Notes: generated from the sequence alone by a model not told the origin. 64,000 nucleotides of DNA from Myxococcota bacterium (GCA_041389525.1 JAWKRR010000022.1:19130-83129), one strand, 5' to 3'. Positions 3,874-39,561 are shown, numbered from the stretch's first letter. Made by a program: numbers and translations.

Positions 3874-3883
3874 GTGGCGGGTC

Positions 3884-4990: not shown

Positions 4991-5065
4991 AATCGAAGGC
5001 GGGGGCGAAGTGGATGGAGGATTTTCGGGCGGCGCGGGCGCGGCGGGCGGCGCGGCGTGGGCGGC

Positions 5066-5767: not shown

Positions 5768-5883
5768 GGTGCCTCCGTGCTGTCGTCTTCGGGGGGTGAG
5801 GCCTCAGAGCCGGGCTCGCAGAACCCGCGCCCCAGCTGTCAGCGTAGAGAGGCCACCGCAGGAGTTCAACCCGCCGCGGGGCG

Positions 5884-6939: not shown

Positions 6940-7236
6940 GGCGCCCCCCCGGTCTGAGCTCACGATCTGCCGGTTGACCCACCGGAGCAACGCCGACCGG
7001 GCACATTCGCACAGCGGAGTGTACCCGGACCCGGCAAGCGCATGAAATCACAGGCACTACACCGCGCCCTCCGGCACCACCCCGCGCCGCCGCTGGCACG
7101 CCTACGGCCCCAAGCCCCTCACCAATAATTCGCCAGAATTTTCAAGACGCACTTGCGCGCATCGGGGTGGCCGGGCGAGGGTGGGCGGACGCCCAAACAG
7201 GCCAGATTCCAAACAAAAACTTCCCCGGAGGGAAAT

Positions 7237-23200: not shown

Positions 23201-23595
23201 TCGAGGTCCCACTGCGCCCCACCGAGACCGCCGGCGAGCTGGTCGGCGGCGTGCGTTTCCGCGCCTGGGCCCCGCCCTACTCCCTCCAGCCCCACCTGGG
23301 CATCCATCACCCCCTCCGGATCGACGTCGTCGACCGCTGGGCCGACCGCAGCCTGGGCGGCGCCGCCTACCACGTCTGGCACCCCGAGGGCCGCGCCTTC
23401 GACGGCCAGCCCCTGACCCGCTTCGAGGCCGCCGCCCGCCGCGCCCAGCGCTTCACCCAAGAGGGCCCCCTGCCCTGGCCCGTCCGCCCGACCCCGGTCG
23501 CGCCTCACCCGGACACCCCCTACACCCTCGATCTCCGCCGCTTCCAAGTCGACCACCCCATGCCCACCGCGCCGCCCGCCGACGAAGCGGAGTAG
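20272..23595 (+). CDS. large transglutaminase-family protein (Bact_transglu_N, transglutaminase-like core, DUF2126-type C-terminal region), 1107 aa
   Basis: N-terminus '[28 protein letters not shown]' is the Bact_transglu_N signature. Transglutaminase core '[30 protein letters not shown]...[23 protein letters not shown]' (Cys, His, Asp). The long antisense ORF 20278..23652(-) is an artefact. Confidence 0.85.
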
Positions 23596-23654
23596 CCCGT
23601 GGCCATGTCCGCGCCCTGCCGCCCCCGCCCCCGCCTTTGCCCACGGAGCCACCC

Positions 23655-25106
23655 GTGACCCCCACGCTCTTCGAGAACTACACGCCCGAACCCGACGCCT
23701 TCGACGAACTCTTCGGTCGCGTCGGGATGCCCCGAGACCCCTTCGCGCCGCTGCTCACCGAGGTCGAGCGCGCCATCGACAACGACTTCGAGCGCCTCCA
23801 ACGCCTCGCAGACCGCGTGCTGCTGCAGTCCGGCGTGACCTTCTCCGTCTACGCGGACCAAGCCGGCACCGAGAAGATCTTCCCCTTCGATCTGCTGCCC
23901 CGCGTCATCAACGCCACCGAGTGGGGCCACCTCGACCGCGGCCTGCGCCAGCGCGTCCAAGCGCTGCAGCTCTTCCTCGACGACGTCTACGGCGACCAGC
24001 GCATCCTGGCCGAGGGCATCATCCCCAAAGAGCTGGTCCTCGGCGCCAGCCAGTACACGCCGCTGGTCTGCGGTATCAAGCCCGCCCGCGGCGTGCGCAT
24101 CCACATCGGCGGCATCGACATGGTGCGCGACGGCGCCGGGACCTGGCTGGTCCTCGAAGACAACGTCCGCACGCCCTCCGGCGTCTCCTACGTGATGGAG
24201 AATCGCCTCGTCACCAAGCGCGTCTTCGCCGCCGCGTTCCGCGAGGCCCAGGTCCAGCGCGTCGACTTCTACCCGTCGAAGCTGGCCGAGAGCCTGCGCT
24301 CCGTCGCGCCCTGCGACCCCTCCGAGGCCACCGTCGTCGTCCTGACGCCGGGCATGCACAACTCCGCCTACTTCGAGCACAGCTTCCTGGCCCGCACCAT
24401 GGGCCTGCCGCTGACCGAGCCGGGCGACCTCTACGTCGAAAACGACCACGTCTGGCTCAAGATGACCCAGGGCCCAAGGCGCGTGGACGTCATCTACCGG
24501 CGCATCGACGACGCCTTCATCGACCCGGCCGCCTTCCGCCCCGACACGCTGCTCGGCGTGCGCGGCCTCATCGGCGCCTGGGCGAAGGGCAACGTCGCCC
24601 TGGCCAACGCGCCCGGCAACGGCGTCGCCGACGACAAGGCGATCTACCCGTACGTGCCCGATATGGTCAGGTTTTACCTGTCTGAAGAGCCGATCCTCGA
24701 GCAGGTGCCGACCTGGCTCTGCGACCGCGAGGACGAGCGCAAGTACGTGCTCGAACACCTCGACGAGATGGTGGTCAAGTCGGTGGACGAGGCCGGTGGC
24801 TACGGCATGTTGATGGGCCCCAGCGCGTCGAAGGCCGAGCGCGACGCCTTCGCCGAGCGCATCAAGGCGACGCCGCGCAAGTACATCGCCCAGCATCGCC
24901 TGGAGCTGTCGACCTGCCCGACGTGGATCCCCGAGACCAAGCGCTTCGAGCCGCGCCGCGTCGACCTGCGGCCCTACATCCTGACGGGCGCCGACGGCCC
25001 CTGGGTGCTGCCGGGCGGGCTGACGCGCGTGGCGCTGCCGAAGGGCTCCTACGTGGTGAACTCGAGCCAGGGCGGCGGCTCCAAGGACACATGGGTGCTG
25101 CGGTGA
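23655..25106 (+). CDS. circularly permuted ATP-grasp protein (DUF404/DUF407 type)
   Basis: GTG 23655. '[17 protein letters not shown]...QSGVTFSVY...[11 protein letters not shown]...[21 protein letters not shown]' is characteristic of the CP ATP-grasp family encoded next to alpha-E proteins. The frame is shared with the Arg-rich upstream part of ORF 22632..25106, which is not coding. Confidence 0.85.
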
Positions 25107-25127
25107 TGGGGGCCGACACACATGACC

Positions 25128-25142
25128 GATCTCGGGCTGGCG
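25128..25142 (-). repeat. REP-like motif copy (GATCTCGGGCTGGCG, inverted orientation) between the ATP-grasp and alpha-E genes
   Basis: Exact reverse complement of CGCCAGCCCGAGATC. Other copies: 3147-3161(+), 12911-12925(+), 39093-39106(+, coding), 41088-41101(-, variant), 45348-45361(-), 45972-45986(+), 59542-59555(+), 57417-57430(-, variant, coding), 20190-20200 (variant). Confidence 0.6.
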
Positions 25143-25167
25143 TTCTCGGCCTCACGGAGGTGACCAA

Positions 25168-26145
25168 GTGATTTCACGCGTCGCAGACCACTGCTTCTGG
25201 CTCGGGCGCTATCTCGAGCGAACGGAGAGCACCTCGCGGATGCTCTTCGTGACCGCAAACCTGGCCCTGGACACGGAGATCGCGTCCAGCGACGTGTGGC
25301 GGCCTGTCATCATCGTGTCGGGCGAAGAGGAGCGCTTCCTCGAGCGCTTCGACGAAGAGCGCGCGGGCGACGCCGAGACCGTGCAGGACTACCTGACCTG
25401 GGACCCGCAATGCGGCGTCTCGCTGCTGGCGTCCATCGACGCGGCGCGCTGGAACGCCCGGGCGATGCGCGAGGTCATCAGCCTGGAGGTGTGGGAGACC
25501 GTCAACGAGCTGCACCTGTGGCTGCGTACCGACGCCGCGCGCGGCCTCTGGACCGACGGGCGCTACGATTTCTACCGGCACATCAACCGCCAGGTGCAGC
25601 TCGTGCTGGGGCAGATCCACGGGACCATGCTGCACAACCACGCCATGGACTTCATCTGGATGGGCGTGCTGCTGGAGCGCACCGGGCAGACCGCGCGCAC
25701 CCTGGACGTCCACCACCACGTGCTGACCCAGCTCGAGGCGCGCGCCGCCGACCCGGGCGTGGGCATGGTGCTGTGGCCGTCGCTGCTGCGGGCGTGCTCG
25801 GCACTCGAGCCCTTCATGAAGAGCAGCGGCGGGGTCATCAGCGGGCGCCGCGTGGCCGATTTCCTGCTGCTGGAGCGGGAGTTTCCGCGTTCGGTTCGCT
25901 TCTGCGTGCGCCGCTCGTGGGAGTGCTTGAGCCGCATCCGGCCGCCGACCGCCGCGAACCTGCCCGGGGGCGAAACCCTCGAGCGGGTGCGGGCTCTGGA
26001 CGCTTGGATGCAGGGGATTTCGACGGAAGGGCTTTCCCACGACCGATTCCACGATATCCTCACGCACGTCGTCGACGAGACCGCCTCCATCTGCGCGGGC
26101 CTCGGAAACGAGGTCCTGGGTCACGGCGACGCGCCCCAGGCCTAG
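25168..26145 (+). CDS. alpha-E domain protein (DUF403)
   Basis: 'MISRVADHCFWLGRYLERTESTSRML' is the canonical alpha-E N-terminus. 62-bp gap from the ATP-grasp gene. Confidence 0.85.
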   Translation: MISRVADHCFWLGRYLERTESTSRMLFVTANLALDTEIASSDVWRPVIIVSGEEERFLERFDEERAGDAETVQDYLTWDPQCGVSLLASIDAARWNARAMREVISLEVWETVNELHLWLRTDAARGLWTDGRYDFYRHINRQVQLVLGQIHGTMLHNHAMDFIWMGVLLERTGQTARTLDVHHHVLTQLEARAADPGVGMVLWPSLLRACSALEPFMKSSGGVISGRRVADFLLLEREFPRSVRFCVRRSWECLSRIRPPTAANLPGGETLERVRALDAWMQGISTEGLSHDRFHDILTHVVDETASICAGLGNEVLGHGDAPQA

Positions 26146-26155
26146 CGCCCGGGCC

Positions 26156-27913
26156 TTGCCGCCTACCGCCGTCGCGCCCCGTCCGGAGACCGTCTTGCCC
26201 AATATGCTCGCGATGTCCTTCGAGGGCGTGCTCGCCCCGTCTTTTGAACTGCGCGGGCTGCGCACCGGCCCCCTCCCGGACGGCTGGGGCGTCGGCTTCT
26301 ACGGTGGAAAAGAGCCAGCCGCCACCGTGCTAAAAGAGCACGCGCCGAGCCCCGGAGGCATGCGCTCGGAGCTCATCAAGTCCTGGGATCACCTGTCGTC
26401 ATCGACCTTCCTGATGCACATCCGGCGCGCGCGCTGGGGAAGCATCAGCGACGCCAACACGCAGCCCTTCGTGCGGACCTGGGGCGGGCGCGACTGGATG
26501 TTCGCCCACGCGGGCTCGCTGGACACGGTGCCGGCCATCAGCGGCCCGTCGCTCTTCGAGCCGGTCGGCAGCACCGACAGCGAGCTGGTCTTCTGCATCC
26601 TGATGAACCGCATCGCCGAGCGCGGCTGGCGGTCTTTGGGCGAGGTCGACATCGACGAGACGCTGGCGCTGCTGCGGAACATGGACGACTACGGCAGCTT
26701 CTCGGTGGTGCTCTGCGACGGCACGGACCTGCTGGCGTACACCGACTGCCAGGGGCAGGCGCCGCTGTATCTGTGGGAGCGCCGGCCGCCCTACAACAGC
26801 CTGACCTTCGGCGACGTGGACCTGAAGGTGGACCTCTTTAGCCGAGGTATCACCAGCCGAAACGGCATCGTGCTGAGCTCCGAGCTGCTCGAGCAGGACG
26901 GCCCGCCGGCGAAGTGGCAGCAGATCCCGTCCGGCGAGCTGCTCATCGCGCGCCAGGGCACGGTGCGGCTGCGCACGGGCAGCCAGCACATCGCGCCGCG
27001 GCTGCACGTCTACTCCGCACCCGCACCGCCGGGTGGCGTCGAGCCCAAGACCTTCCGCGTCCGCCACAGCAGCGTCTACACCTACGAGAAGGCGGTGGAG
27101 CGCAGCGACCACCTGCTGCGGCTGACCCCCATCGAGGACGCGCTGCAGCGTGTGAACTCGCACAGCATCCAGGTCTCGGTCGACGGTCGGGCCCGCGACT
27201 TCGAGGACGTCTTCGGAAATCGCTGCCGCCGCCTGCTCATCGAGACGCCCTTCACCGAGATGAGCATCGTCGCCGAGAGCATCGTCGAGGTGCGCGACAC
27301 CGACCCCTTCCACTACCGGCCGCTGCGCGCGCGGACCCGCATCCCGCTGGTCTGGATGCCGTGGCAGCGCCACATGCTGGCGCCCTACATGCTGCCGCCG
27401 GAGCTGCCCGAGTCGCAGCTAGGCACCCTGACCGACTACGCGATGAACTTCGTCGAGCGAAACGACTACGACCTGGTCCAGACCCTGCTCGACATGAACC
27501 TGACCATCTTCAACGAGTACAAGTACGAGCAGGGCTCGACGACCCTGGCGACGACGGCCTTCGAGACCTACGTCGACCGCCAGGGCGTGTGCCAGGACTT
27601 CGCCAACCTGCTCATCGCGATGTCGCGGCTGCTGGGCGTGCCGGCCCGCTACGCCGCCGGCTACATCTACACGGGGCCCAAGGCGGTGAACCAGGTGCAG
27701 TCGGAGGCCTCGCACGCGTGGGTGCAGTGCTACCTGCCCGAGCTTGGCTGGAAGGGGCTGGACCCGACGAACGGCCTGGTCACCCAGACCGACCACATCC
27801 GCGTGGCGGTCGGCCGCAACTACGTCGACGCCACGCCGACGGGCGGCACCATCTACGTCGGTGGGCTGGGCGAGACCCTGGTGGTCGACGTCCAGGTCGA
27901 GCCCATCGCGTAG
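26156..27913 (+). CDS. fusion protein: YafJ-type class II glutamine-amidotransferase-like (Ntn) domain plus C-terminal transglutaminase-like cysteine-protease domain
   Basis: The N-terminal domain aligns with E. coli YafJ ('DGWGVGFY' vs DGWGITFY; 'NTQPF' vs NTHPF; 'GRDWMFAHAGSL' vs GRNWTYAHNGQL; 'PVGSTDSELVFCIL' vs PVGETDSEKAFCWL). The C-terminus 'GVCQDFANLLIAMSRLLGVPARYAAGYIY...SHAWVQCYLPELGWKGLDPTNG' is a Bact_transglu/TGase core. The start is ATG 26156 or 26204; 11-bp gap from the alpha-E gene. Confidence 0.8.
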   Translation: MPPTAVAPRPETVLPNMLAMSFEGVLAPSFELRGLRTGPLPDGWGVGFYGGKEPAATVLKEHAPSPGGMRSELIKSWDHLSSSTFLMHIRRARWGSISDANTQPFVRTWGGRDWMFAHAGSLDTVPAISGPSLFEPVGSTDSELVFCILMNRIAERGWRSLGEVDIDETLALLRNMDDYGSFSVVLCDGTDLLAYTDCQGQAPLYLWERRPPYNSLTFGDVDLKVDLFSRGITSRNGIVLSSELLEQDGPPAKWQQIPSGELLIARQGTVRLRTGSQHIAPRLHVYSAPAPPGGVEPKTFRVRHSSVYTYEKAVERSDHLLRLTPIEDALQRVNSHSIQVSVDGRARDFEDVFGNRCRRLLIETPFTEMSIVAESIVEVRDTDPFHYRPLRARTRIPLVWMPWQRHMLAPYMLPPELPESQLGTLTDYAMNFVERNDYDLVQTLLDMNLTIFNEYKYEQGSTTLATTAFETYVDRQGVCQDFANLLIAMSRLLGVPARYAAGYIYTGPKAVNQVQSEASHAWVQCYLPELGWKGLDPTNGLVTQTDHIRVAVGRNYVDATPTGGTIYVGGLGETLVVDVQVEPIA

Positions 27914-27951
27914 CCCCCGCCGCCCCAACCCCTGCGCCCCGCGAGGCCCCC

Positions 27952-28317
27952 ATGCTGCAGAAAGTCGCCTTCACCCTGGTCCCGATCAAGGACGCCGCCC
28001 GCGCCCGGGCCTTCTACGAGGACACCCTCGGCCTGACCCGCGGCAGCCACCACGAAGACGGCACGTGGACCGAGTACGACCTGCCCGGAGGCGGCTGTCT
28101 GGCGCTCTTCCGCTCCGACGACCTGCAGCCGAGCAACACCGCCGGCAGCACCGTCGCCTTCGAGGTCGACGACCTCGACGCGCTCAACGCGACACTCAAA
28201 TCCCAAGGCGTCACCTACGCCCAAGACATGATCCACTCCCCGGTGTGCCGGATGTCGGTCATCGTCGACTCCGAGGGCAACGGCCTGCTCCTCCACGAGC
28301 TCAAGGCGAAGCCCTAG
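27952..28317 (+). CDS. VOC (glyoxalase/bleomycin-resistance fold) family protein
   Basis: 121 aa. 'VAFTLVPIKDAARARAFYEDTLGL' and 'TVAFEVDDLDALNATLKSQGV' form beta-alpha-beta-beta-beta VOC modules. It is the in-frame tail of ORF 26914..28317, whose upstream part is Arg/Ala noise. Confidence 0.65.
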   Translation: MLQKVAFTLVPIKDAARARAFYEDTLGLTRGSHHEDGTWTEYDLPGGGCLALFRSDDLQPSNTAGSTVAFEVDDLDALNATLKSQGVTYAQDMIHSPVCRMSVIVDSEGNGLLLHELKAKP

Positions 28318-30149: not shown

Positions 30150-31142
30150 ATGGCACGTACAGCACGCATTCAGGCTCCTGGGCTTTGGCATCACGTGATG
30201 AACCGCGGGGTTGGGCGCGGGGATGTGTTCGTCGACGACGACGACCGGCACGGGTTCTTCGAGCTGCTTGAGGACGTCGCCGAGCGGTGGGGGCTGCGGA
30301 CGCACGCGTTCTGCCTGATGGGCAACCACTTCCACCTGCTCGTCGAGGACACGGAGGGAAACCTCGCGCGGGGGATGCGGCACGTGCTCGGCGTCTACAC
30401 GCAGCGCTTCAACCGGCGACACGGGCGCGACGGGTCGCTCTTTCGCGGGCGGTTTCGGTCGCGGCTGGTGCAGCACGAGGAGTACCTCGCGGAGCTTGTG
30501 CGCTACATCCATATGAACCCGGTGCAGGCGGGGCTCGCCGAGCACGCGGGCGACTACCCGTGGTCCAGCCACGGGCACTACATGCGCGGCACGGGCCCCG
30601 CGTGGCTCGCGACGGGGGAGGTCATGGGCCGGTTCGGTGGCGACCCCGAGCGGCTCGACACCTTCGTGCACGCGCGGGTGCCCGACGAGGTCAAGGCGGC
30701 GCTGGACCCGGCGGTCAACCCGAAGCTGCTGGGCGACGACGCGTTCGAGGCGGCTTGGGCCGACCGGCTGCGCGGGCGGCCAGGCTCGGGCCCGGCGGCG
30801 GCTGACGCGCCGGGCCGCCTTCGTAGCGCCGCGCGCGAGGTGATCGCCGCGGTCGCCGCGCACTTCCACGTCAAGCCGGCCGCCATCAAGCGGGCGGTCC
30901 GCGGGCAGCCCAACCCCGCCCGCCACGTCGCGCTGCTGGTCTGCTTGGACTACACGCAGATGTCGAGTCGCGACGTCGCCCGGGCCCTGGCGATGCACCC
31001 CACCAGCGTCGCCTCGCTGGCGCATCGCTACCGCAAGACGATGGCTCAGGACCCCGAGTTCCGGGCGGACGTGCAGGCCGTGCTCGCCGCGCTGCGCGCC
31101 GCCCCCCAGCCTGCGTCGACTCGCGGCGCAGCCAAGAGCTGA
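30150..31142 (+). mobile_element. IS200/IS605-like Y1 HUH transposase of the RAYT type (COG1943) with a C-terminal DnaA-C-like HTH domain
   Basis: 'HHVMNRGVGRGDVF...LRTHAFCLMGNHFHLLVE' carries the HuH motif. 'ELVRYIHMNPVQAGL' and 'YPWSSHGHY' (catalytic Tyr region) are typical of RAYT/IS200-like TnpA. The C-terminal 'HVALLVCLDYTQMSSRDVARALAMHPTSVASLAHR' resembles DnaA domain IV. REP-like copies are scattered in the window (see repeats). Confidence 0.7.
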
Positions 31143-31452
31143 GCGGGCGCGCGGCGAACAAGCCCGCCCGGGTCCGAGGCGAATCTAGAGACGGCGACAG
31201 GCCGATCGGAGATCCTCGGGCCCGAACTCGCCCGCGGTGACGGGTCTTTTTCGCGCCGACCGACCGTCGGGGTTCGCCGTTCGGCAGCGGCGCGCTGGCC
31301 CCGGGGTTGCTCGCCCATAGGGCCGGACCTAGTGCCGCGAGGGTTTCGTCTCGGCGAGCCAGTTACATCGACGGCGCGAATGCGCGTGGCGCACCGGCCG
31401 CGGGTCCGCATTCTAAATGCCTCACACACAATGACTTGGAAGAGGCTCCACG

Positions 31453-34400
31453 ATGCGTAAGCAGACGTTCCGGATTGGCCTGCTCGTGGCCGTTGCTTTA
31501 TTGGCGGGTTGTCCAGACGGCACGACCTCGTCGAACGACGCCACGGCCGATGCGCTCCCCGAGGTCGACGGCTCGACATTCCTCGACAGTGCGGGCGGCG
31601 ACGCGACCGTGGACACCGCGCCCGACGCCACGCCGGACACCGTCCCTGACACAACGGACACGGGCCCCGACGCCACGCCGGACGCGGTCCCCGACGCCAC
31701 GCCGGACGCGGTCCCCGACGCCACGCCGGACGCGGCCCCCGACGCCACGCCGGACGCGGCCCCCGACGCCACGCCGGACGCGGTCCCCGACATCCGCGCC
31801 GGACGCGGTCCCCGACGCCACGCCGGACGCGGCCCCCGACGCCACGCCGGACGCGGCCCCCGACACCACGCCGGACGCGGCCCCCGACGCCACGCCGGAC
31901 GCGGTCCCCGACACCGCGCCGGACGCGGTCCCCGACACCGCGCCGGACACGGCCCCCGACACCACGCCGGACACAGCCCCTGACACCACGCCGGACACGG
32001 TCCCCGACACCACGCCGGACGCTGGCACCGCCTGCGAGTGCGGCCCGACTGCACCGGAAGGTCTGCGGGACGACGCCTGCGGCGGCACCTGCGGTGAGTG
32101 CGCCTCCGGCCAGCTGTGCAGCGCGGACGGCACCGCCTGCGAGTGCGTGCCCGACTGCACCGGAAAGGTCTGCGGCGACGACGCCTGCGGCGGCACCTGC
32201 GGTGAGTGCGCCTCCGGCCAAGCGTGCAGCGCGGACGGCACCGCCTGCGAGTGCGTGCCCGACTGCACCGGAAAGGTCTGCGGCGACGACGCCTGCGGCG
32301 GCACCTGCGGTGAGTGCGCCTCCGGCCAAGCGTGCAGCGCGGACGGCACCGCCTGCGAGTGCGCGCCCGACTGCACCGGAAAGATCTGCGGCGACGACGC
32401 CTGCGGCGGCACCTGCGGTGAGTGCGCCTCCGGCCAAGCGTGCAGCGCGGACGGCACCGCCTGCGAGTGCGTGCCCGACTGCAACGGCGCGGTGTGCGGT
32501 GACGACGGCTGTGGCGGCAGCTGCAGCGCGGACACCCCGACCATCGCGTGCGCCGACGTCTTCACCGGCGTGACCAACGAAGGCGGCGCGACCGCCCTGA
32601 ACAACGCCACCTGGGGCGGGTGCGCGGTGAACGAAGAGTACGACGGTCCCGAGATCGGCTGGGTGTTCACCCCGACCCAGGACTCCGTCGCCACGTTTGA
32701 GCAGACCAACGACCCGGCGTTCGGAGGCATCGGGGGCGTCGGCGACGACGTAGACCTCTTCGTGATCGAGGCGGACGACGCCAACATGTGCTCGCCCAGC
32801 CCGACCGCGTGCCTCAACGCCACCGCATTCCACACCGCCGTGTTCAACGCGGTCGCCGGCAAGACCTACTACCTCATCATGGACGGTTGGACCTCGGGTG
32901 GCGGCTCCGGCATCGTCAACCCCATCGACGTCAGCCTGACCTGCTGCACGCCCGACTGCGCGGGCAAGCTGTGCGGCGACGACGGCTGCGGCGGCACCTG
33001 CGGCGAGTGCGCCGATGGGGACGCGTGCAACGAAGGGGCCTGCTGCACGCCCGACTGCGCCGGCAAGGTGTGCGGCGACGACGGCTGCGGCGGCACCTGC
33101 GGCGAATGCGCCGCCGGGGACACGTGCACCGTGGGGACCTGCTGCACGCCCGACTGCACGGGCAAACTGTGCGGCGGCGACGGCTGTGGCGGCAGCTGCG
33201 GCGGGGACGCCCCGACCATCGCGTGCGCTGACGTCTTCACCGGCCTGACCAACGACGGGGGTCCTGCCACCCTGAACACAGCCACCTGGAACGGGTGCGC
33301 GAGCTCGGAGGCGTACGACGGTCCCGAGATCGGCTGGGTGTTCACACCGACCCAGGACTCCGTCGCCACGTTCGAGCAGACCAACGACCCGGCGTTCGGA
33401 GGCATCGGGGGCATAGGCGACGACGTAGACCTCTTCGTGGTCGAGGCAGACGACGCCAACATGTGCTCGCCGAGCCCGGACACGTGCCTCGCCGCCACCC
33501 GATTCTACGATGCCGAGTTCAAAGCGGTCGCCGGGAAGAGCTACTACCTCATCCTGGACGGCTGGACCTCCGGTGGCGGCACCGGCATCGTCAACCCCAT
33601 CGACGTCAGCCTGACCTGCTGCTTCCCGGCCTGCGACAACCTCAGCTGCGACATCACCGACGGGTGCGGCGGGACCTGCGGTTGCGCCGCGGGAGACACG
33701 TGCAACGCCGGCTCCTGCTGCACGCCCGATTGCGCGGGCAAGCTGTGCGGCGACGACGGCTGCGGCGGCAGCTGCGGTGCCTGCAACGCCGGGGACACGT
33801 GCAACCAAGGGGCCTGCTGCACGCCCGATTGCACGGGCAAGCTGTGCGGCGACGACGGCTGCGGCGGTGGTTGCGGCGAGGACGTCCCGACCATCGCATG
33901 CGCTGACGTCTTCACCGGCCTGACCAATGACGGAGGCTTGACCACCCTGAACAACGCCACGTGGAACGGGTGCGCGGGCGCGGAGGACTACGAGGGTCCC
34001 GAGATCGGCTGGGTGTTCACCCCGACCGAGGACGTCGCCGCCAGCTTCGTGCAGACCAACGACCCGCTGCTCACCGGGGCCGCAGCCGTCGCCGACGACT
34101 TGGACCTCTTCGTGGTCGAGGCCGACGCGGTGGATATGTGCTTGCCGAGCCCAGCCGCGTGCCTCACCGCCACCACGTTGCACACCGCCGACTTCAACGC
34201 GTTCGCCGGCAAGAGCTACTACCTCATCCTTGACGGCTGGACCGGGGGTGGCGGCACCGGAATCGTCAATCCCATCGACGTCAGCCTGACCTGCTGTGTC
34301 CGCTCCTGCGACAAAGTCAGCTGCGGCGGCGCGGACGGGTGCGGAGGGACCTGCGGTTGCGCCGACGGGGACACGTGCAACGCAGGTTCCTGCTGCACGC

Positions 34401-34915
34401 CAGCGTGCGCCCCGGGGGTCTGCGGAGCCGGCTCCGACGGATGTGGCGGCCAGTGCGCCTGCGACGCGGGCTTGGTCTGCGGCGTCGACAACCAGTGCGC
34501 GCCACCCGGGCAGGGCAATGACTGCAGCGACCCCCTGGTCGCCACGGGCGCGCTCCCCATCACCTTGACCGGAGACACCGATCTCTTTTTCGACTCGTTC
34601 ACGGGCGGGGACACCTGCGCGACGAACTTCGGGAATGGCAGCGGTGTTGCCGACGCCGTCTACGAGTGGACTCCCGACGAGACCGGGGCCTACACGTTCA
34701 CCCTGGACGTGGGTGGCAGCGGCGCCGCGCCGAGCTTCTTGCACTACCGCACGGCGTGCGACGGGGCCTGTGACGGGGCAAGCGGAGACCTCTACCAGGG
34801 CGGCGCCGTGACGTGGACCCTGACCGGCGGCACGACCTACCACATCATCGTGGATGGACAGTTCTCCGAGGAGGCCGGTCCCTACACCCTGACCATCTCG
34901 GGGCCGGCTCCCTGA
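31453..34915 (+). CDS. giant Cys-rich secreted lipoprotein built from nested tandem repeats; +1 frameshift near 31793 (pseudogene or repeat-tract sequencing error)
   Basis: ATG 31453, lipobox 'LLAGC'. About 16 copies of an 8-aa (24-bp) TPDA(V/A)PDA repeat. Frame breaks after '...PDATPDAVPD', where 'gacatccgcgccggac' replaces the consensus 'gacgccacgccggac' (1-nt insertion); reading continues in the frame of ORF 31307..34915. Then 4 copies of a 36-aa unit 'DACGGTCGECASGQACSADGTACECVPDCTGKVCGD', three ~225-aa domains ('IACADVFTG...GWTSGGG(S/T)GIVNPIDVSLTCC') and a distinct C-terminal domain. The antisense 1333-aa ORF 31046..35047(-) is an artefact. Confidence 0.6.
31620..32020 (+). repeat. 24-bp in-frame tandem repeat (about 16 copies) encoding (T/A)PDA(V/A/T)PDA
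   Basis: Direct reading: cccgacgccacgccggacgcggtc reiterated with a few substitutions. One unit carries the extra nucleotide that causes the frameshift. Confidence 0.8.
32075..32510 (+). repeat. 108-bp near-identical tandem repeat (4 copies) encoding a 36-aa Cys-rich unit
   Basis: 'gcctgcggcggcacctgcggtgagtgcgcctccggcca' recurs at 32075, 32183, 32291 and 32399 (period 108). Confidence 0.8.
32540..34560 (+). repeat. three ~675-bp tandem copies encoding a ~225-aa domain
   Basis: Units begin 'ccgaccatcgc(g/a)tgcgc(c/t)gacgtcttcaccggc' at about 32540, 33226 and 33890. Each encodes 'EIGWVFTPTQDSVATFEQTNDPAFGGIGG.GDDVDLFV.EADDANMCSPSP..CL'. Confidence 0.75.
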
Positions 34916-35065
34916 TCGGCGTGGCGCGGCGGCGGCGGGCTGGTCCGTCGCCGCCTGCCCACAGCGCGGCGGCTGCTGCCCGATGTGGTCGCCGCCCCGC
35001 CACGGCTGGCTGGCGGTCGGCCGCGAGCGCCGGTATCGTCGTGCCATCGAAACACGGAGGCGGCG

Positions 35066-36229
35066 ATGGTCTGCTCACGGCTCGGCGACGGGCTGCTGGC
35101 TTTGTCGTGCGCGGTGCTCTTGGCGTGCGGTGGCGGGACCGGAACCGACGACCCGGGGGAGCCGGGCGTCGTCACTGAGTGGGACGGGCAGACCTGTCCA
35201 GGCGGCGGCACGCTGGCGACGGACCCGGTGGACGTCCACGCGCGCTGGTGCGAGTCCGGGGGGAAGCGCTCGGGGCCCTTTGGGCGCTGGTATCCGCCCG
35301 GGCCTGAGGCCGGCGGGGCGCGCGAGGTGCTCGGCCAGTACTCGGGCGGGCTGGCGAGCGGCACCTGGGCGACCTACTACGAGTCGGGCGGGATCGCTGA
35401 GACGGGCGCCTATCGGGACGGGGAGCGAGATGGGGGCTGGCGATTCTTGAGGGCCGACGGCTCGCTGGAGAGCGACGGGACCTACGCGGCCGGGGTCCTC
35501 AGCGGCGCGTGGAAGACCTACGCGCGCGACGGCGGCGTCGCGGAAGCCGGCGCGTACGTCGCGGGCGAGCGGGGCGGCGTCTGGACGCGCTACGGGGCCG
35601 CGGGCCAGGTCGTCGAGACCACCACCTGGGCGGCCGGGCTGCGCGACGGGCTCTACGAGCGCTTCTACGCCGACGGCGGCGCGGCGGAGACCGGGACCTA
35701 CGCGGCCGACCGGCGCCAGGGCACCTGGACCCTGTGGCACCCCGGCGGCGAGAAACAGACCGAGGGCGCCTACGACCGCGGGACGAAGACCGGCCTGTGG
35801 CGTGGCTGGATGCCCGACGGCCGACCCGACTTCGAGGGGCCCTACGTCGCGAGCCTCGCCCACGGGACCTGGACCTTCTGGGAGTACGCGCTGCCCTCGC
35901 CGATACGCCGTCGCACCGGCGAGTTCCGGTCCGGCGCCGCGGTCGGCGCGTGGAAGGTCATCTGGGAGACCGGCGGCGCGGGCACCGTGCAAGAGGAATA
36001 TGCCTACGTCGGCGGCCTGCCCCACGGCCCGACCCGCGGCTTCTGGCAGGACGGCACGCCCTGGTGGGTCGGCTTCTACAGCGCCGGACAGCGAGACGGC
36101 GCCTGGATGATTTGGCACTCCAACGGGCAGTTGGCGGCACAAGGCGAGTACGCGGACGGCGAGCGCACCGGCGACTGGACCTGCTTCGACGCGTCTGGCC
36201 AGCCCACCGACTGCGAGGGGCTCCTATGA
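35066..36229 (+). CDS. MORN-repeat-variant (YwqK-like) lipoprotein
   Basis: ATG 35066, lipobox 'LLACGG'. About 10 repeats of the G(T/A)W..(Y/W)...G....G.Y..G...G.W type ('GTWATYYESGGIAETGAYRDGERDGGWRF', 'GAWKTYARDGGVAEAGAYVAGERGGVWTRY', etc.). Confidence 0.7.
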   Translation: MVCSRLGDGLLALSCAVLLACGGGTGTDDPGEPGVVTEWDGQTCPGGGTLATDPVDVHARWCESGGKRSGPFGRWYPPGPEAGGAREVLGQYSGGLASGTWATYYESGGIAETGAYRDGERDGGWRFLRADGSLESDGTYAAGVLSGAWKTYARDGGVAEAGAYVAGERGGVWTRYGAAGQVVETTTWAAGLRDGLYERFYADGGAAETGTYAADRRQGTWTLWHPGGEKQTEGAYDRGTKTGLWRGWMPDGRPDFEGPYVASLAHGTWTFWEYALPSPIRRRTGEFRSGAAVGAWKVIWETGGAGTVQEEYAYVGGLPHGPTRGFWQDGTPWWVGFYSAGQRDGAWMIWHSNGQLAAQGEYADGERTGDWTCFDASGQPTDCEGLL

Positions 36230-39200
36230 GGCGCAGGACCCACACGGGGCCGGCCCTCGGCGCGACCCTGGCGCTGCTCTCGCTGCTCGGCCCGGCCCAC
36301 GCTCACGGCGGCCTCTTCGCCCCTCCGAGCGACCCCGATCTCGGGCTGGTGGACGTCGTCCCGCTGGCTGGCTCCCTGGTGACCGTCGACGCGAAAGGCT
36401 GGGCCTGGCTCGCCGATGTGTCCGACGAATACTGGCTCTCCGCGGTCCCCATGGGCGCGCCCTTCGCCGCGGCCACGTCGATTCGCTTCCCCAGCGTCCA
36501 GCTTGGCGGCCCGCCCTCCGCCAGCATCACCCACGGCCGCCGCGCCTGCCCGGCCCGAGACGGCGACGGCGTGTGGGTGCTGGACATCAAAAACGGCGAC
36601 ACCGCCTCACTGTTTCGCCTCCGCGCGGCCGACTACTCACCCCCCACGGGCTTTCCCGTGCAGGCGGTCGTCGAGATCCCGATGCTGCCACCGCTTCGCG
36701 AGGCCCTGGGGCTGAGCCTTAGCTGGGAGGCGACCCTGCAGACCTACTTCAAGACGAACGTCGCCCACCCGCGCTTCGGCCTGGTCGAGCGGCCCGACGG
36801 CGCGGTCTGCGCGATGTTCGCCGGCGCCTCGTTCTGCCTCGTCCCGGGCGCCACGGCCGCCGAGGGGACGCTTGAGCTGCTGACCCGGCCGGAGGACTTC
36901 GCGACAGGCCTGCCCGTGGACCCACAGGTCGGCGGCGGCGGCTACGGCATCGTGCGCGACATGCTGTGGACCCGCGCCGAGGGGCGCCACATCCTGCTCA
37001 TCGAGCGAAAGCGCGACCCCATCCCCTTCAACACCTCGTGGAATCCGACCGGAGCGAGCGAGCACACCGCTCATCTGGTGGTCGAGCGGCACCCCGACGG
37101 CACCTTCGACGTGCTCGACGGCCCCTACCACGTCAAATACGACGACAATCGCTCGACCCTGAGCAGCCACCCGCTCACCGACGCCGTTCAGCTAATGGAG
37201 TGGCCAGGGCGGCAGGCCGTGGTCGCGTGGCCCGTCCGCGGGCAAGCGTGGAACTGGGTCGACGCGAACGCTGGCGACGCGCAGGGAGGCGACCTGGCCA
37301 ACCCGAACTTCACCCCGGTCGGCTGGGTCGGCGACGGGATGCGCGTCGTGTCGCTGGGCGCTGGAGGCGGCGCGGGGGACCTGCCCCTGGGCGACGCCCT
37401 AGACCGGCGGCTCACCTGCGAGCGCGCGTTCTTCGGCCACTGCGCCACCGCCGCGACGACGCGACTCGTCGCCGAGCCAGGGACCGGGACCCCACTCCTC
37501 GCCCTGGAGACCGAGCGCGAGGGCGCGGGCCTGCCCATCTACCGCGTGGTGCTCGACGACGCGAAGCTGGACCTCGACGGCGACCACCTGACCGCCGCCG
37601 AGGAGGCCGCGGCGGGCACCAGCGACCTGTGGGCCGACAGCGACGGCGGCGGCAACAGCGACCGCGAAGAGCTGCTCGCGGGCACCGACCCGAACGACCC
37701 CCAAGACGATCCGGTGGGGGCGCTGCGGGACGGCGGCGAGGTCATCTACTCGACCAGCGCGCTGATTCGTCGTCGCCTCGGCCGCCTCTGGAGCGGCGGA
37801 GCCCCGCCCCCGCTGGGCATCAGCTACGCGCCGGCGGGCCCGGTCTGTGTCGCCACCGGCTGCTACAACGCCCGCGGCGAGCAGGTGCTGCGTTGGGACG
37901 GCCAGGACCCAGCGACGGCCTGGGTCCCGACCAAATCCGTCGACGGGCGCTGGGTGGTCATCTGGACGGCGGACGACGTGGTGCGCATCCGCGTGGCCGA
38001 CGGCCTGCGCGAGACCATCGTCGCGCGCGACGCCCTGGCGAGCCTGTTCGAGCTCGTGGACACGGGACCGGCGCTCTGGGGCGTGCGCGTCATCCCCGTC
38101 GACGCAGATGAAACCTGGTTCATCTCGCAGTGGCCCCGGGCCATGGCGGTGGTCGTCGACTCAAGCGGCGCGCGGGTGGCCTTCGACCCGATGAAAGCGC
38201 GCTGCGACGCGGGATTGGGGCCCTGCGACCCGGGCCCGCTGCCCGAGGCCGCCAACGCCCACAAGAGCTGCGGCGGCGGCCTGCCCGGCGCGGTGTGCGG
38301 CGACCCGCTGCCGGCCCACGACCTGGACGACCGCGACCTGCACCTCGTGGGCTGGGACGAGGCCCTGGGCCGCTTGATCGTGGTCGTTCATGGCGTCTGG
38401 GACACCTACGAGCTGGCCCTTCACCACACGGACGCCCCCATGCTGCGCCGCAGCAACGTCGACCTCCGCGTCGAGCCCGTCGACCCGCGCGACCCGTGGG
38501 CGCTCTTACGCCCGACGATTCATACCGAGGCCATGTGGCACGGCACCGGCTACGGCGACGTCCTGACCGACGTGCGCACGCGCGGCCCCTTCGGCGCGCC
38601 GATCGCCGGCCGCTTGGAGGCCTTCGCCATGTACGGCCCCGGGGTCTTCGGCGGCTGGGGCGACACGCTGCTCTACTGGCTCTACACCGGCAGCGGCCAG
38701 GACGGCCTCTTCGAGCTCGTCCGCATGCCGGGCGGCCTCGAACCGGGCGACGTGCTGGTCCTGGGGACACGCAGCGACCCCACCTGGGCCGGCTCGGTCG
38801 CCGGCGACGACCCGGAGCCACAGCTCTGGCGGAGCAGCGCGCGCGGAGGCTTGGCCCAAGTGTGGGCGGGCCCCCAGGGCCTGCTCGACGCGCCCACTGA
38901 CATGGACGTCACCGCCGACGGCGACCTCTGCATCGTCGACGGCGGCACGGTCTTCCGCTTCGCCGCGCTCTCTTTTGACCAGCGTTTGCCTAGCGTTTTC
39001 GTCGACGGCTGGACCGGACACGACGCGGCGCGCTGCCGCTTCGCCCCCGACGGCACGCTGTGGCTCCAGACCGCCGGGGGCGTGCTGATGAGCCAGCCCG
39101 AGATCACCTCCGACTTCGCCCCCGCCGAGGGCGGCCCCCCCTTCGAGGACCGCGCGCTGGTCCGCCCCGACGGGCTCGTCGTCAGCCTCAGCCCACCGCC

Positions 39201-39561
39201 GGCGAACACCCCCCACTACGGCGTCATCGCGACCGACCCCGCGACGAACGAGAGCTGGGAGCTAGCCCCCGTGACCTTCCGCGACGACGTCGCCCCGAGC
39301 GGCACGCCAGCGCCGCCCATCCTCGCGATGGTGCCCGGCGGCGAGCCCCGCGACCCGTGGACCGGCGAGCTCATCGTCGAGGCGGCGACCCGCACGGCCG
39401 CGGCGCGAGGCGAGTCCGCGCAGCCGGCCAGCCCCGCAGCGTCGGGCTGCGGCGCGGCGCGGCCGGGGGCCCCGTCAGGGCAGGCGCTGTGGCTGCTGCT
39501 CGGGCTCGCGGCGCTCGGCGTCAGCCGTCGTCGCCGGGCAAGCGACAGCCCAGGCATCTGA
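36226..39561 (+). CDS. large secreted protein (1111 aa) with thrombospondin-type-3-like Ca-binding repeat and C-terminal MYXO-CTERM-type sorting tail
   Basis: ATG 36226 overlaps the stop of the upstream gene (ATGA). Signal 'LALLSLLGPAHAHG'. 'DLDGDHLTAAEEAAAGTSDLWADSDGGGNSDREELLAGTDPNDPQDDP' is TSP3-like. C-terminus 'SGCGAARPGAPSGQALWLLLGLAALGVSRRRRASDSPGI' has a GC motif, a hydrophobic helix and an Arg cluster. The ORF 35509..39561 shares this frame but its upstream part is Arg-rich noise. Confidence 0.7.
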   Translation: MRRRTHTGPALGATLALLSLLGPAHAHGGLFAPPSDPDLGLVDVVPLAGSLVTVDAKGWAWLADVSDEYWLSAVPMGAPFAAATSIRFPSVQLGGPPSASITHGRRACPARDGDGVWVLDIKNGDTASLFRLRAADYSPPTGFPVQAVVEIPMLPPLREALGLSLSWEATLQTYFKTNVAHPRFGLVERPDGAVCAMFAGASFCLVPGATAAEGTLELLTRPEDFATGLPVDPQVGGGGYGIVRDMLWTRAEGRHILLIERKRDPIPFNTSWNPTGASEHTAHLVVERHPDGTFDVLDGPYHVKYDDNRSTLSSHPLTDAVQLMEWPGRQAVVAWPVRGQAWNWVDANAGDAQGGDLANPNFTPVGWVGDGMRVVSLGAGGGAGDLPLGDALDRRLTCERAFFGHCATAATTRLVAEPGTGTPLLALETEREGAGLPIYRVVLDDAKLDLDGDHLTAAEEAAAGTSDLWADSDGGGNSDREELLAGTDPNDPQDDPVGALRDGGEVIYSTSALIRRRLGRLWSGGAPPPLGISYAPAGPVCVATGCYNARGEQVLRWDGQDPATAWVPTKSVDGRWVVIWTADDVVRIRVADGLRETIVARDALASLFELVDTGPALWGVRVIPVDADETWFISQWPRAMAVVVDSSGARVAFDPMKARCDAGLGPCDPGPLPEAANAHKSCGGGLPGAVCGDPLPAHDLDDRDLHLVGWDEALGRLIVVVHGVWDTYELALHHTDAPMLRRSNVDLRVEPVDPRDPWALLRPTIHTEAMWHGTGYGDVLTDVRTRGPFGAPIAGRLEAFAMYGPGVFGGWGDTLLYWLYTGSGQDGLFELVRMPGGLEPGDVLVLGTRSDPTWAGSVAGDDPEPQLWRSSARGGLAQVWAGPQGLLDAPTDMDVTADGDLCIVDGGTVFRFAALSFDQRLPSVFVDGWTGHDAARCRFAPDGTLWLQTAGGVLMSQPEITSDFAPAEGGPPFEDRALVRPDGLVVSLSPPPANTPHYGVIATDPATNESWELAPVTFRDDVAPSGTPAPPILAMVPGGEPRDPWTGELIVEAATRTAAARGESAQPASPAASGCGAARPGAPSGQALWLLLGLAALGVSRRRRASDSPGI

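Follow-up and report, generated by a model that had tools for sequence, protein, structure and literature searches.

A repeat-built gene for a predicted cell-surface lipoprotein of a Myxococcota bacterium, broken by one extra base in its present assembly

Surface proteins of modular, repeat-rich design whose copy numbers vary are well known, and what we describe here does not overturn current understanding. The question raised by positions 31453-34915 of the window (the whole stretch of 64,000 nucleotides of Myxococcota DNA that was analysed) is what kind of gene, and how many reading frames, such an accumulation of tandem duplications represents. The initial annotation described one 3.5-kb surface-protein gene assembled from three nested levels of repeats and followed by a unique C-terminal domain. 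In our analysis the locus is a fairly ordinary, tandemly duplicated, repeat-built gene for a predicted cell-surface lipoprotein, composed of an acidic stalk, eight-cysteine spacers and four domains, and in the present assembly it is broken by one extra base (Table 1). Thus, the repeats of the earlier description stand, while the single reading frame and the uniqueness of the C-terminal domain do not, and “nested” is right only in part. As to its interpretation, a surface or exported location, tandem duplication and length variation were supported, recency held for the 108-bp units only, lineage specificity of the Cys unit did not hold, and the frameshift had been missed.

Table 1. Features of the locus, in window coordinates.
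Feature	Position	Strand	Evidence
Upstream region conserved with the ortholog	31361..31452	+	blastn homology begins at 31361; conserved blocks in pairwise alignment
Shine-Dalgarno-like GGAAGAGG	31438-31445	+	7 nt ahead of the ATG; read from sequence
Predicted lipoprotein signal peptide MRKQTFRIGLLVAVALLAGC, lipobox L-A-G-C	31453..31512	+	translation; ortholog signal MRNQILRLALLVAIALLAGCPDG
24-bp array x16.8, acidic Pro/Thr/Ala-rich low-complexity stalk	31621..32022	+	TRF, unit listing, translation
Aberrant 25-bp unit, extra T at 31793	31786..31810	+	unit listing, GC3 frame plot, uninterrupted ortholog
108-bp array x4.7, 95% identity, 36-aa eight-cysteine modules	32024..32524	+	TRF, pairwise differences, module register
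PPC-like domain copy 1 (predicted beta-sandwich), 136 aa, A-type	32540..32947	+	family profile match, E 8e-18
99-bp array x2.7, 33-aa eight-cysteine modules, between copies 1 and 2	32938..33203	+	TRF, motif scan
PPC-like domain copy 2 (aa sequence 83% identical to copy 1); used for modelling	33215..33622	+	
99-bp array x2.2, Cys modules between copies 2 and 3	33658..33867	+	TRF, motif scan
PPC-like domain copy 3, nearest to the one domain that the ortholog has (aa sequence 79% identical)	33890..34297	+	
Two variant Cys modules (VRSCDKVSCGG..., CCTPACAPGVCGAGSDGCGG...), copy 3 to last domain	34298..34507	+	translation; gap-free alignment with ortholog tail
C-terminal PPC-like domain, C-type subfamily, 135 aa + stop codon	34508..34915	+	phmmer, iterated profile, hhalign, architecture survey

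All three of the repeat sizes first reported were recovered. For the 24-bp unit, about 16 copies had been claimed and Tandem Repeats Finder (TRF) gives 16.8 (89% matches); for the 108-bp unit, four copies at more than 95% identity had been claimed and TRF gives 4.7 at 95%; the three copies of the 675-bp unit were found by a repeat search at exact 675-bp spacing (starting at 32468, 33143 and 33818), and the peptides quoted at the time are present in the translation. The 24-bp array encodes a stalk of about 140 aa that reads (P-D-A/T-T/A-P-D-A/T-V/A)n. Each 675-bp unit consists of a 408-bp domain and 267 bp of Cys modules with 99-bp sub-repeats inside (two arrays according to TRF), so nesting is found at this level, but the 24-, 108- and 675-bp arrays follow one another in series. 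The 108-bp units differ from each other at 2-9 of 108 positions, and the identities among the 675-bp units are 84% (first and second), 73% (first and third) and 76% (second and third). As dS among the 675-bp copies is 0.18-0.33, similar to the divergence from an ortholog, the recent expansion originally proposed must be limited to the 108-bp units.

This ortholog lies in the activated-sludge MAG HK-STAS-MYXO-49 as an intact ORF of 774 aa with no frameshift, the same lipoprotein signal and a tail that is 80% identical and aligns free of gaps. The dN/dS between the two genes is 0.31-0.38, indicating purifying selection. The comparison of copy numbers with related genomes that had been suggested for this locus (here, one relative) reveals differences at all three levels, since the ortholog holds 18.9, 6.4 and 1 copies of the 24-, 108- and 675-bp units where the window holds 16.8, 4.7 and 3, and thus offers a clean two-genome example of a surface-protein gene whose repeats have changed in number at each of three scales. 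There is no synteny between the two loci, and homology is confined to the gene and about 90 bp upstream. In the window, a RAYT-like transposase gene adjoins the gene upstream, and the neighbours encode further surface proteins (a MORN_2 lipoprotein and MYXO-CTERM proteins). No further orthologs were found in JGI metagenome contigs, and exact-sequence look-ups of the ortholog protein and of the neighbouring transposase gene gave no match.

Could these copy numbers, above all those of the 24- and 108-bp arrays, be an artefact of collapse or expansion during the assembly of near-identical repeats? Some 108-bp units differ by only 2 nt, and short reads resolve poorly an array that is 400-500 bp long and has units 95-98% identical. 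We nevertheless hold such an artefact to be unlikely, as all pairs of units show some differences, every unit length keeps the frame with the exception of the single base inserted at 31793, and the same types of arrays occur in the independent MAG of the ortholog, a hybrid long-read assembly (PMC8518188). The 675-bp copies, being 73-84% identical, are not assembly duplicates. Consequently, the assembly duplication that the initial annotation had set against its own proposal is not borne out, given the in-frame substitutions between copies and the similar arrays of the independent assembly. Phase variation or programmed frameshifting was also considered and rejected, because the ortholog is free of frameshifts and the periods of 24, 99, 108 and 675 bp are all multiples of three, which does not correspond to a phase-variable contingency locus. 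Of the 17 units in the 24-bp array, 16 have lengths that are multiples of three: fourteen measure 24 bp, one measures 21 bp, and the terminal one runs into unique sequence.

The remaining unit, of 25 bp, reads CCCGACATCCGCGCC... and contains the extra T at 31793. This base shifts the frame by +1 and thereby cuts off the signal peptide and the leading half of the stalk from what follows in the protein. Positions 31453-34915 are therefore not a single ORF: the ATG at 31453 opens a signal-peptide ORF in frame 1 (31453-31983, 176 aa), whereas the long ORF, which runs from 31307 to 34915, uses frame 2. When T31793 is deleted, a continuous protein of 1153 aa is obtained and the repaired unit becomes identical to the unit at 31907, which reads CCCGACACCGCGCC; the lesion is thus a one-base insertion within one unit, the number of units being unchanged. 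The GC3 frame signal switches at this point, the sole switch without a stop codon in the 64 kb. The true start of the gene is the ATG at 31453 and its stop is at 34915. As the extra T splits the signal-peptide ORF from the main ORF, NCBI annotates only a truncated protein of 922 aa (MEZ4266868.1, “hypothetical protein”, from a Myxococcota MAG) that starts at an internal GTG (32147); the deposited entry is the truncated product of a frameshifted gene whose real product would be the 1153-aa lipoprotein. An exact-sequence look-up of the 176-aa ORF gave no match. A long antisense ORF (31046-35047, 1333 aa) was discarded as a GC-rich artefact, as the GC3 phase and all homology favour the frames of the plus strand.

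As sequenced, the allele either is a pseudogene or contains a consensus error, and in its assembled form it may make no protein. The chances seem even that the error arose in the consensus or assembly of the 24-bp array and that the organism has an intact gene, expressed as the 1153-aa lipoprotein. The insertion sits in a highly repetitive, GC-rich array of the kind where polishing errors gather, the removal of one base restores both a unit matching that at 31907 and a continuous ORF, the ortholog is intact, and the downstream codons are undecayed, with no stops over 3.1 kb and a dN/dS of 0.3-0.4 relative to the ortholog. By contrast, the extra T is in a non-homopolymer context, and the lack of any other stop-less frame switch in the 64 kb indicates that the assembly is not generally ridden with indels. 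A genuine frameshift, which would make the allele a pseudogene inactivated not long ago or leave it with nothing but an unexported fragment in the cytoplasm, is plausible too, though somewhat less likely: the sequence as given is frameshifted, NCBI could call just the 922-aa product, and the gene has a transposase gene directly upstream and flanks that are non-syntenic with those of the ortholog. Additionally, surface-protein genes are commonly lost or inactivated. Against this, there is no second lesion across 3.4 kb, and the high-GC3 coding signal and the conservation of the domains are fully retained, which would place any inactivation in the very recent past.

The repaired protein begins with MRKQTFR-IGLLVAVAL-LAGC, that is, a charged n-region, a hydrophobic h-region and a lipobox that fits the bacterial lipoprotein pattern [LVI][ASTVI][GAS]C. 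The signal is shared by the ortholog and by homologs of the same architecture, which agrees with the exported surface protein initially proposed, and we infer from it that the protein is lipidated and exposed at the surface. No catalytic domain, peptidases included, was found in the 1153 aa with Pfam and NCBIfam.

The initial annotation could not name the repeated domain, and at the level of Pfam and NCBIfam this holds, as the repaired protein, a 136-aa copy, the C-terminal domain and three tandem Cys modules were all searched with no meaningful match; the matches to PLD_C, IrmA, SdrC/D and PEP-CTERM were rejected as sub-threshold and compositional. PF04151 matched neither the whole protein nor a 136-aa copy nor the C-terminal domain at E<=1, the domains of the window thus falling short of its gathering threshold. 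Similarly, one 136-aa copy found no match when 5.8 billion proteins were searched by word index, nor did a profile of the three copies in a PDB sequence search, and an exhaustive HMMER search with this profile found only 59 representatives at E<=1e-3.

Family-level comparisons were more informative. Direct BLASTP between the repeat domain and the C-terminal domain is insignificant (E 0.065), but a profile built with the C-terminal domain as its sole seed, with the protein of the window left out of the database, matches copies 1-3 at E 5e-15 to 8e-18, and hhalign aligns the A-type and C-type profiles at 99.0% (E 2.7e-18, 103 columns). A phmmer search with the C-terminal domain retrieves multi-copy homologs. 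By profile-sequence and hhalign similarity, all four domains belong to a single family, and the C-terminal domain, far from unique, forms with the 136-aa domain what these profiles define as two subfamilies (A-type and C-type). The profile of 68 family members in turn matches 2luw_A (vEP C-ter100, a solved PPC domain) at E 2.3e-6 and 30.9 bits over profile positions 41-124, and five of the 68 aligned members match PF04151 (best E 2.3e-5). AlphaFold2, which reached a pLDDT of 51 with the three paralogous copies alone, predicts eight strands for copy 2 when given the 68-sequence alignment (pLDDT 79.3, pTM 0.78). The model has a beta-sandwich (jelly-roll) fold that superposes on PPC/CBD structures, other beta-sandwiches scoring nearly as high; its sequence identity to the ColG and ColH CBDs is 11-12%, and Foldseek against the PDB gave weak matches, none at E < 1e-3. 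We conclude that the family belongs to the PPC/collagen-binding-domain superfamily, an assignment based on profiles of the family and on a model whose confidence is moderate. Consequently, the HMM and structure analysis that had been advised for the 225-aa unit and the C-terminal domain provides no Pfam or NCBIfam name, but it does lead to a PPC-like domain.

This homology to PPC domains at the profile level is accompanied by a common pattern of strand motifs (an acidic D-x-D-L-F/Y-V strand and a G-x-T/S-Y-Y-I/L-x-V/L-D-G strand). Both kinds of domain are extracellular (for the window, by prediction), and PPC domains are known to serve as binding modules for a substrate or polymer (PMC6168687), a role that the copies of the window would share. 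On the other hand, the copies of the window are not recognised by PF04151, are longer (about 136 aa versus about 70-110) and have conserved cysteines (in the family, C28 and C84 are invariant, and C91 and an N-terminal Cys are present in at least 90%). Classical PPC domains lie after a peptidase domain. In contrast, the 1153-aa protein has no peptidase, and its four copies alternate with Cys modules in a lipoprotein, as do up to eight in homologs. One to eight copies are carried by 38 of 121 scanned proteins (the 120 best matches and the repaired protein of the window), and 15 of the 18 homologs inspected start with a lipoprotein-type signal, typically followed by a low-complexity linker. The domains usually alternate with Cys modules and the last one mostly ends the protein, as also occurs here. 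Family members are lipoproteins built solely of PPC-like domains and Cys modules.

The Cys module, which might have been lineage-specific according to the initial annotation, turned out to be a widespread extracellular module, being present at E<=1e-3 in at least 2,569 proteins (8,000 candidates scored) and fused to many unrelated extracellular enzymes. The 36-aa version has the spacing C-x3-C-x4-C-x4-C-x3-C-x2-C-x5-C-x6-C, and the 33/36-aa modules overall follow C-x3-C-x4-C-x4-C-x3-C-x2-C-x5-C-x4/6-C with the core CG[DG]D[GA]CGG. Three tandem modules matched no Pfam or NCBIfam model, a PDB sequence search with the modules returned only noise and no relative, and a literature search for the motif strings found no papers. 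TIGR02232 (Myxococcus cysteine-rich repeat) and PF11617 (Cu-binding_MopE, a putative metal-binding motif) are likewise short Cys-rich tandem modules of secreted or lipoprotein sequences in Myxococcota, and PF11617 co-occurs with the window-type module in one homolog, but the cysteine spacing is distinct and neither model matches the 33/36-aa module (searched with the whole protein and with three tandem modules, no match at E<=1). Presumably, the modules are disulfide-knotted rigid spacers, and they may constitute a new disulfide-rich mini-domain fold, given their presence in thousands of extracellular proteins and the lack of a Pfam or NCBIfam model. Both modules, the divergent cysteine-stabilised PPC-like domain with its two subfamilies and the eight-cysteine spacer, are common in Myxococcota and other environmental bacteria and have no curated model, which makes them invisible to routine annotation; defining them would give a name to segments of thousands of extracellular proteins now called “hypothetical”.

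It could be argued that the Cys modules bind metal, as metallothionein or MopE do, which would make the protein a surface scavenger or buffer of metals (e.g., copper) instead of an adhesin. Cysteine makes up about 10% of the protein, in CxxC-type spacings, and one homolog carries PF11617 (Cu-binding_MopE). However, neither PF11617 nor any other metal-binding model matches the protein, CorA and MopE matches score below those to PPC/CBD, export through a lipoprotein signal to an oxidising compartment favours disulfides, and fusion to many unrelated extracellular enzymes is what would be expected of a generic spacer. We deem metal binding improbable.

Two known systems resemble the whole protein, as distinct from its modules. 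FibA of Myxococcus xanthus is an M4 metalloprotease with two C-terminal PPC domains, a fragment of which is the spore-cuticula Protein C (PMC3236237). It is also myxobacterial, its pro-form has been proposed to be lipid-anchored, and its PPC-type domains reach the extracellular matrix and spore coat (PMC3236237). In contrast to the protein of the window, FibA combines a catalytic M4 domain with canonical PF04151 domains and lacks both Cys modules and an acidic repeat stalk. Any homology between the two would be at the superfamily level only. The staphylococcal Sdr/Clf proteins also use acidic low-complexity repeats (Ser-Asp) as a stalk between anchor and binding domains, and their repeat number also varies between strains. 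Nevertheless, there is no homology; the anchor is a predicted N-terminal lipid here and a C-terminal LPXTG there, the host of the window is Gram-negative and the binding domains differ. With the whole protein, NCBIfam gives matches only to the SdrC/SdrD repeat region; these are compositional and far too weak (E 0.17, 9-10 bits against cut-offs of 1700-2500), and the protein does not qualify as an MSCRAMM Sdr adhesin.

With a probability of about 0.65, we read the locus as one gene for a lipid-anchored, extracytoplasmic, non-catalytic, multivalent binding protein whose repeat copies change by recombination or slippage. The anatomy, the frameshift, the homology of the four domains, the fold and sequence link to the PPC superfamily and the difference in copy number are direct results; from the sequence we infer the binding function, its ligand and disulfide bonding. 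From N to C terminus, the protein would consist of the signal peptide, the (PDxx)n stalk, the run of 36-aa Cys modules, three cassettes in which a 136-aa PPC-like beta-sandwich domain is followed by 33-aa Cys modules, and the fourth PPC-like domain. The lipid anchor and stalk would hold out a rod of disulfide-stabilised spacers, and this rod would present four modules resembling PPC/collagen-binding domains for multivalent binding to a polymeric or insoluble ligand, candidates being matrix, prey-cell or particle surfaces. For instance, the C-terminal segment of a Grimontia collagenase, PPC domain included, is reported to bind collagen (PMC6168687). Over evolutionary time, unequal recombination or slippage in the 24-, 99/108- and 675-bp repeats would alter how long the stalk is, how many spacers follow it and how many binding modules are displayed (the valency).

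Alternatively, the protein might be a self-assembling building block of a matrix, S-layer or spore coat and not a receptor for a foreign ligand, which we find rather unlikely. PPC-containing fragments of FibA gather in the extracellular matrix and spore cuticula of M. xanthus (PMC3236237), and the repetitive modular architecture with no catalytic domain and the surface proteins encoded next door would be compatible with such a role. However, a lipid anchor and a long flexible stalk suit display better than a lattice, self-association has no support, and the difference from an adhesin is in part a matter of terminology. Retaining the multivalent binding protein as our reading, we tentatively suggest that lipoproteins made of repeated pairs of a PPC-like domain and an eight-cysteine module are a class of undescribed, fast-evolving surface receptors of Myxococcota, whose ligands may be, for example, prey-cell, matrix or particle polymers. 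If so, the duplication and loss of cassettes would tune receptor valency, with one versus three copies in close relatives and up to eight elsewhere.

The stretch 31453-34915 had been described in the initial annotation as one gene, but the signal-peptide ORF and the long ORF lie in separate frames. The frame opened by ATG 31453, which encodes MRKQTFRIGLLVAVALLAGCPDG... and has the Shine-Dalgarno-like GGAAGAGG 7 nt upstream, closes with a stop at 31983, and the long ORF that ends at 34915 is read in a different one. When split unit by unit, the 24-bp array resolves into fourteen 24-bp units, one 21-bp unit and a terminal unit continuing into unique sequence, and the frame is kept by every unit of the array except one of 25 bp at 31786-31810 (CCCGACATCCGCGCCGGACGCGGTC; compare the unit at 31907, CCCGACACCGCGCC...). 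A GC3 phase plot also shows the coding phase shifting at this unit, all other same-strand phase changes in the 64 kb coinciding with stop codons, i.e., gene boundaries. Deletion of T31793 produces a continuous gene of 3,462 nt that encodes a protein of 1153 aa (the repaired protein). The extra T could be a consensus error or, with about the same probability, a genuine and very recent inactivation, and expression of this allele depends on whether the T is real. The database product of this sequence, MEZ4266868.1 (922 aa, 103-kb contig), starts at an internal GTG (32147) within the second 108-bp unit and, therefore, is an annotation shortened by the frameshift; the 176-aa signal-peptide ORF (31453-31983) is absent from the protein collection searched. 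An antisense ORF of 1333 aa (31046-35047, - strand) that spans the whole gene was rejected, as GC3 phase and homology back only the + strand; it is a by-product of stop-poor, GC-rich repeats.

The tandem repeats claimed for this gene are real and far beyond chance, as judged by the four arrays that Tandem Repeats Finder reports in all (see the table), the exact 675-bp spacing that a repeat search finds among the three large copies (U1, U2 and U3), and the unit alignments, in which DNA identity is 84% for U1-U2, 73% for U1-U3 and 76% for U2-U3. Three nested levels of duplication had been proposed; the 24-, 108- and 675-bp arrays are instead arranged in series, and nesting holds only for the 99-bp repeats, because each 675-bp unit is composed of a 408-bp domain and 267 bp of 99-bp Cys modules (eight-cysteine units).

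Repeat arrays of the target gene and neighbouring features (window positions)
Feature	Position	Strand	Details
24-bp array	31621-32022		16.8 copies, 89% matches (Tandem Repeats Finder)
108-bp array	32024-32524		4.7 copies, 95% matches (Tandem Repeats Finder)
First 99-bp array	32938-33203		2.7 copies (Tandem Repeats Finder)
Second 99-bp array	33658-33867		2.2 copies (Tandem Repeats Finder)
DUF2126 putative amidoligase + transglutaminase protein	20272-23595		PF09899, E 6e-301
GATase_4 + transglutaminase fusion	26156-27913		ORFs between it and the DUF2126 gene
330-aa protein gene	30150-31142	+	directly upstream of the target gene
MORN_2 lipoprotein	35066-36229
1111-aa secreted protein	36226-39561	+
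MYXO-CTERM protein, 478 aa	39475-40911	-	convergent with the 1111-aa gene; TIGR03901 20.1 bits (cut-off 20)

No significant match was found in Pfam or NCBIfam for the repaired protein, one copy of its 136-aa repeat domain, the C-terminal domain or the Cys modules. One 136-aa copy gave zero matches in a word-indexed search, and when HMMER was run exhaustively against 1.84 billion representatives, only 59 proteins reached E<=1e-3. The C-terminal domain had been considered unique, but it is homologous to the 136-aa copies: a profile iterated only from this domain, against a database from which the window's protein had been removed, detects copies 1-3 full-length (E 5e-15 to 8e-18), and hhalign joins the profile of the repeat-domain subfamily (38 sequences, ending ...CC) to that of the C-terminal subfamily over 103 columns, with 99.0% probability and E 2.7e-18. 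By both results, the C-terminal domain is a fourth, divergent member of the family.

Membership of this domain in the pre-peptidase C-terminal (PPC)/collagen-binding-domain beta-sandwich superfamily is well supported by a fold model together with sequence links. For instance, PF04151 (PPC) is matched by 5 of the 68 family members aligned (best E 2.3e-5), and the profile of this alignment gave one convincing match among solved structures, 2luw_A (E 2.3e-6), which is C-ter100, the PPC domain of the metalloprotease vEP from Vibrio vulnificus. With the same alignment, AlphaFold2 produced a usable eight-stranded model of copy 2 (pLDDT 79.3, pTM 0.78); with three sequences only, the result was poor (pLDDT 51). 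Placement from the predicted fold alone would be soft, because the SID1 ectodomain, PliG and GOLD beta-sandwiches come close behind in structure comparison and Foldseek found no match to the model at E below 1e-3. In contrast to canonical PPC domains, the window domain is ~136 aa long, carries conserved cysteines (invariant: C28, C84; in at least 90%: C91, an N-terminal Cys) and is joined to no peptidase.

Both Cys modules, of 36 aa (108 bp) and 33 aa (99 bp), follow the spacing C-x3-C-x4-C-x4-C-x3-C-x2-C-x5-C-x4/6-C and contain the core CG[DG]D[GA]CGGxCGxC; the repaired protein contains 114 Cys (9.9%). When the protein body was used as query, 2,569 proteins among 8,000 candidates scored reached E<=1e-3, nearly all of them through these modules, whose partners include PF04151 PPC, PF04371 agmatine deiminase/PAD, PF00932 LTD, PF01833 TIG, M23 and C25 peptidases, FGE-sulfatase, SLH and others. 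The module had no relative among the PDB sequences searched, and its motif was not found in the literature searched. Its most economical reading is that of a disulfide-knotted spacer, functionally similar to EGF-type modules, because the protein carries an export signal and the module turns up in fusions with numerous unrelated extracellular enzymes.

A scan of 121 proteins, namely the repaired protein and the 120 best matches, found between one and eight domain copies in 38 of them. A lipoprotein-type signal peptide opens 15 of the 18 homologs inspected for layout, typically followed by a low-complexity linker; domains and Cys modules usually alternate, and most of these proteins end with the last domain. 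The repaired protein has exactly this layout. Scanning one genome per species yielded one close relative, L001, on contig JACKFB010000001.1 of MAG HK-STAS-MYXO-49, which belongs to a hybrid long-read study of activated sludge (PMC8518188); the JGI metagenome contigs scanned contained no further orthologs. Its ORF (4702-7026, 774 aa) is uninterrupted and has the same signal peptide (MRNQILRLALLVAIALLAGCPDG), the 24-bp array encodes T/D/A-rich repeats rather than the P/D/A/T-rich ones of the window, and the 205-aa tail aligns gap-free with ~80% identity. The length variation anticipated among relatives was indeed observed, with 18.9 copies of the 24-bp unit, 6.4 of the 108-bp unit and a single 136-aa domain in L001, against 16.8, 4.7 and 3 in the window. 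This single domain is nearest to copy 3 (79% at the amino-acid level, vs 76% for copy 1 and 74% for copy 2).

Regarding age, dS is 0.18 for U1-U2 (dN/dS 0.61), 0.30-0.33 for U1-U3 and U2-U3 (0.50-0.57), 0.38 for U3 and the L001 domain (0.31) and 0.30 for the tail of both proteins (0.38). Recent expansion, as originally proposed, applies to the 108-bp units, which differ at only 2-9 positions among four full units and are recent or homogenised, but not to the 675-bp units, whose dS values (0.18-0.33) indicate that their duplications are not very recent; these are of about the same age as the divergence from L001, with one later round. The gene has evolved under purifying selection.

The analysis establishes the modular layout of the protein, its lipoprotein-type signal, the homology of its four PPC-like domains, the different copy numbers of the two relatives and the frameshift, and a mode of action may be proposed. 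The mature protein would be exported and lipid-anchored, its acidic (PDxx)n stalk and disulfide-rich modules would keep the four beta-sandwich modules off the membrane, and these could bind a polymeric ligand multivalently, with length and valency altered by unequal recombination among repeats. PPC/CBD domains bind collagen and other insoluble substrates (PMC6168687), and a PPC fragment of M. xanthus FibA is present in the matrix and spore cuticula (PMC3236237), which suggests, by analogy, a similar role for the window protein. The protein is a divergent version of what is already known, namely a binding domain of the PPC superfamily, a spacer rich in cysteine and a surface lipoprotein variable in its repeats, and should not much surprise a specialist. 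New here are a corrected model of the gene, the merging of two domain types into one family, the assignment to the PPC superfamily, a comparison of copy numbers against an ortholog, and the finding that curated models are lacking for an eight-cysteine module that is very widespread and for this PPC-like subfamily.

DNA homology between the window and L001 is limited to the gene and ~90 bp upstream, the flanking genes being unrelated. These upstream stretches (31361-31452 in the window, 4612-4701 in L001), alike in otherwise non-syntenic loci, share the blocks GAGTTACA, CGACG, GCGAATGC, GTGG-CGC and GGCCGC and are a possible promoter or regulatory region; a sigma-70 consensus scan of them found no site. 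The 330-aa protein encoded upstream fuses an IS200-like Y1 transposase/REP-associated tyrosine transposase domain (PF01797, E 4e-8; NF047646, 77.4 bits, just below the cut-off of 80) with a DnaA_C-like helix-turn-helix, and its gene may mark a rearrangement, as the L001 flanks are unrelated.

The target gene and the genes for the MORN_2 lipoprotein and the 1111- and 478-aa proteins form a surface-protein gene cluster, and the neighbourhood is consistent with a surface-protein region, with no functional link following from it. The 1111-aa protein had no match in Pfam or NCBIfam; its C-terminus (…GCGAARPG…LWLLLGLAALGVSRRRR) resembles a MYXO-CTERM sorting tail. A cluster of three ORFs at 20272-28317 is unrelated to the target gene. 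Upstream of the ortholog, L001 encodes a 785-aa lipoprotein (2128-4485, + strand) whose Cys-rich repeat is a different one, CDGxDNDCDGxTDE (2.5 copies at a period of 90 bp), which resembles the MopE-type putative metal-binding motif.
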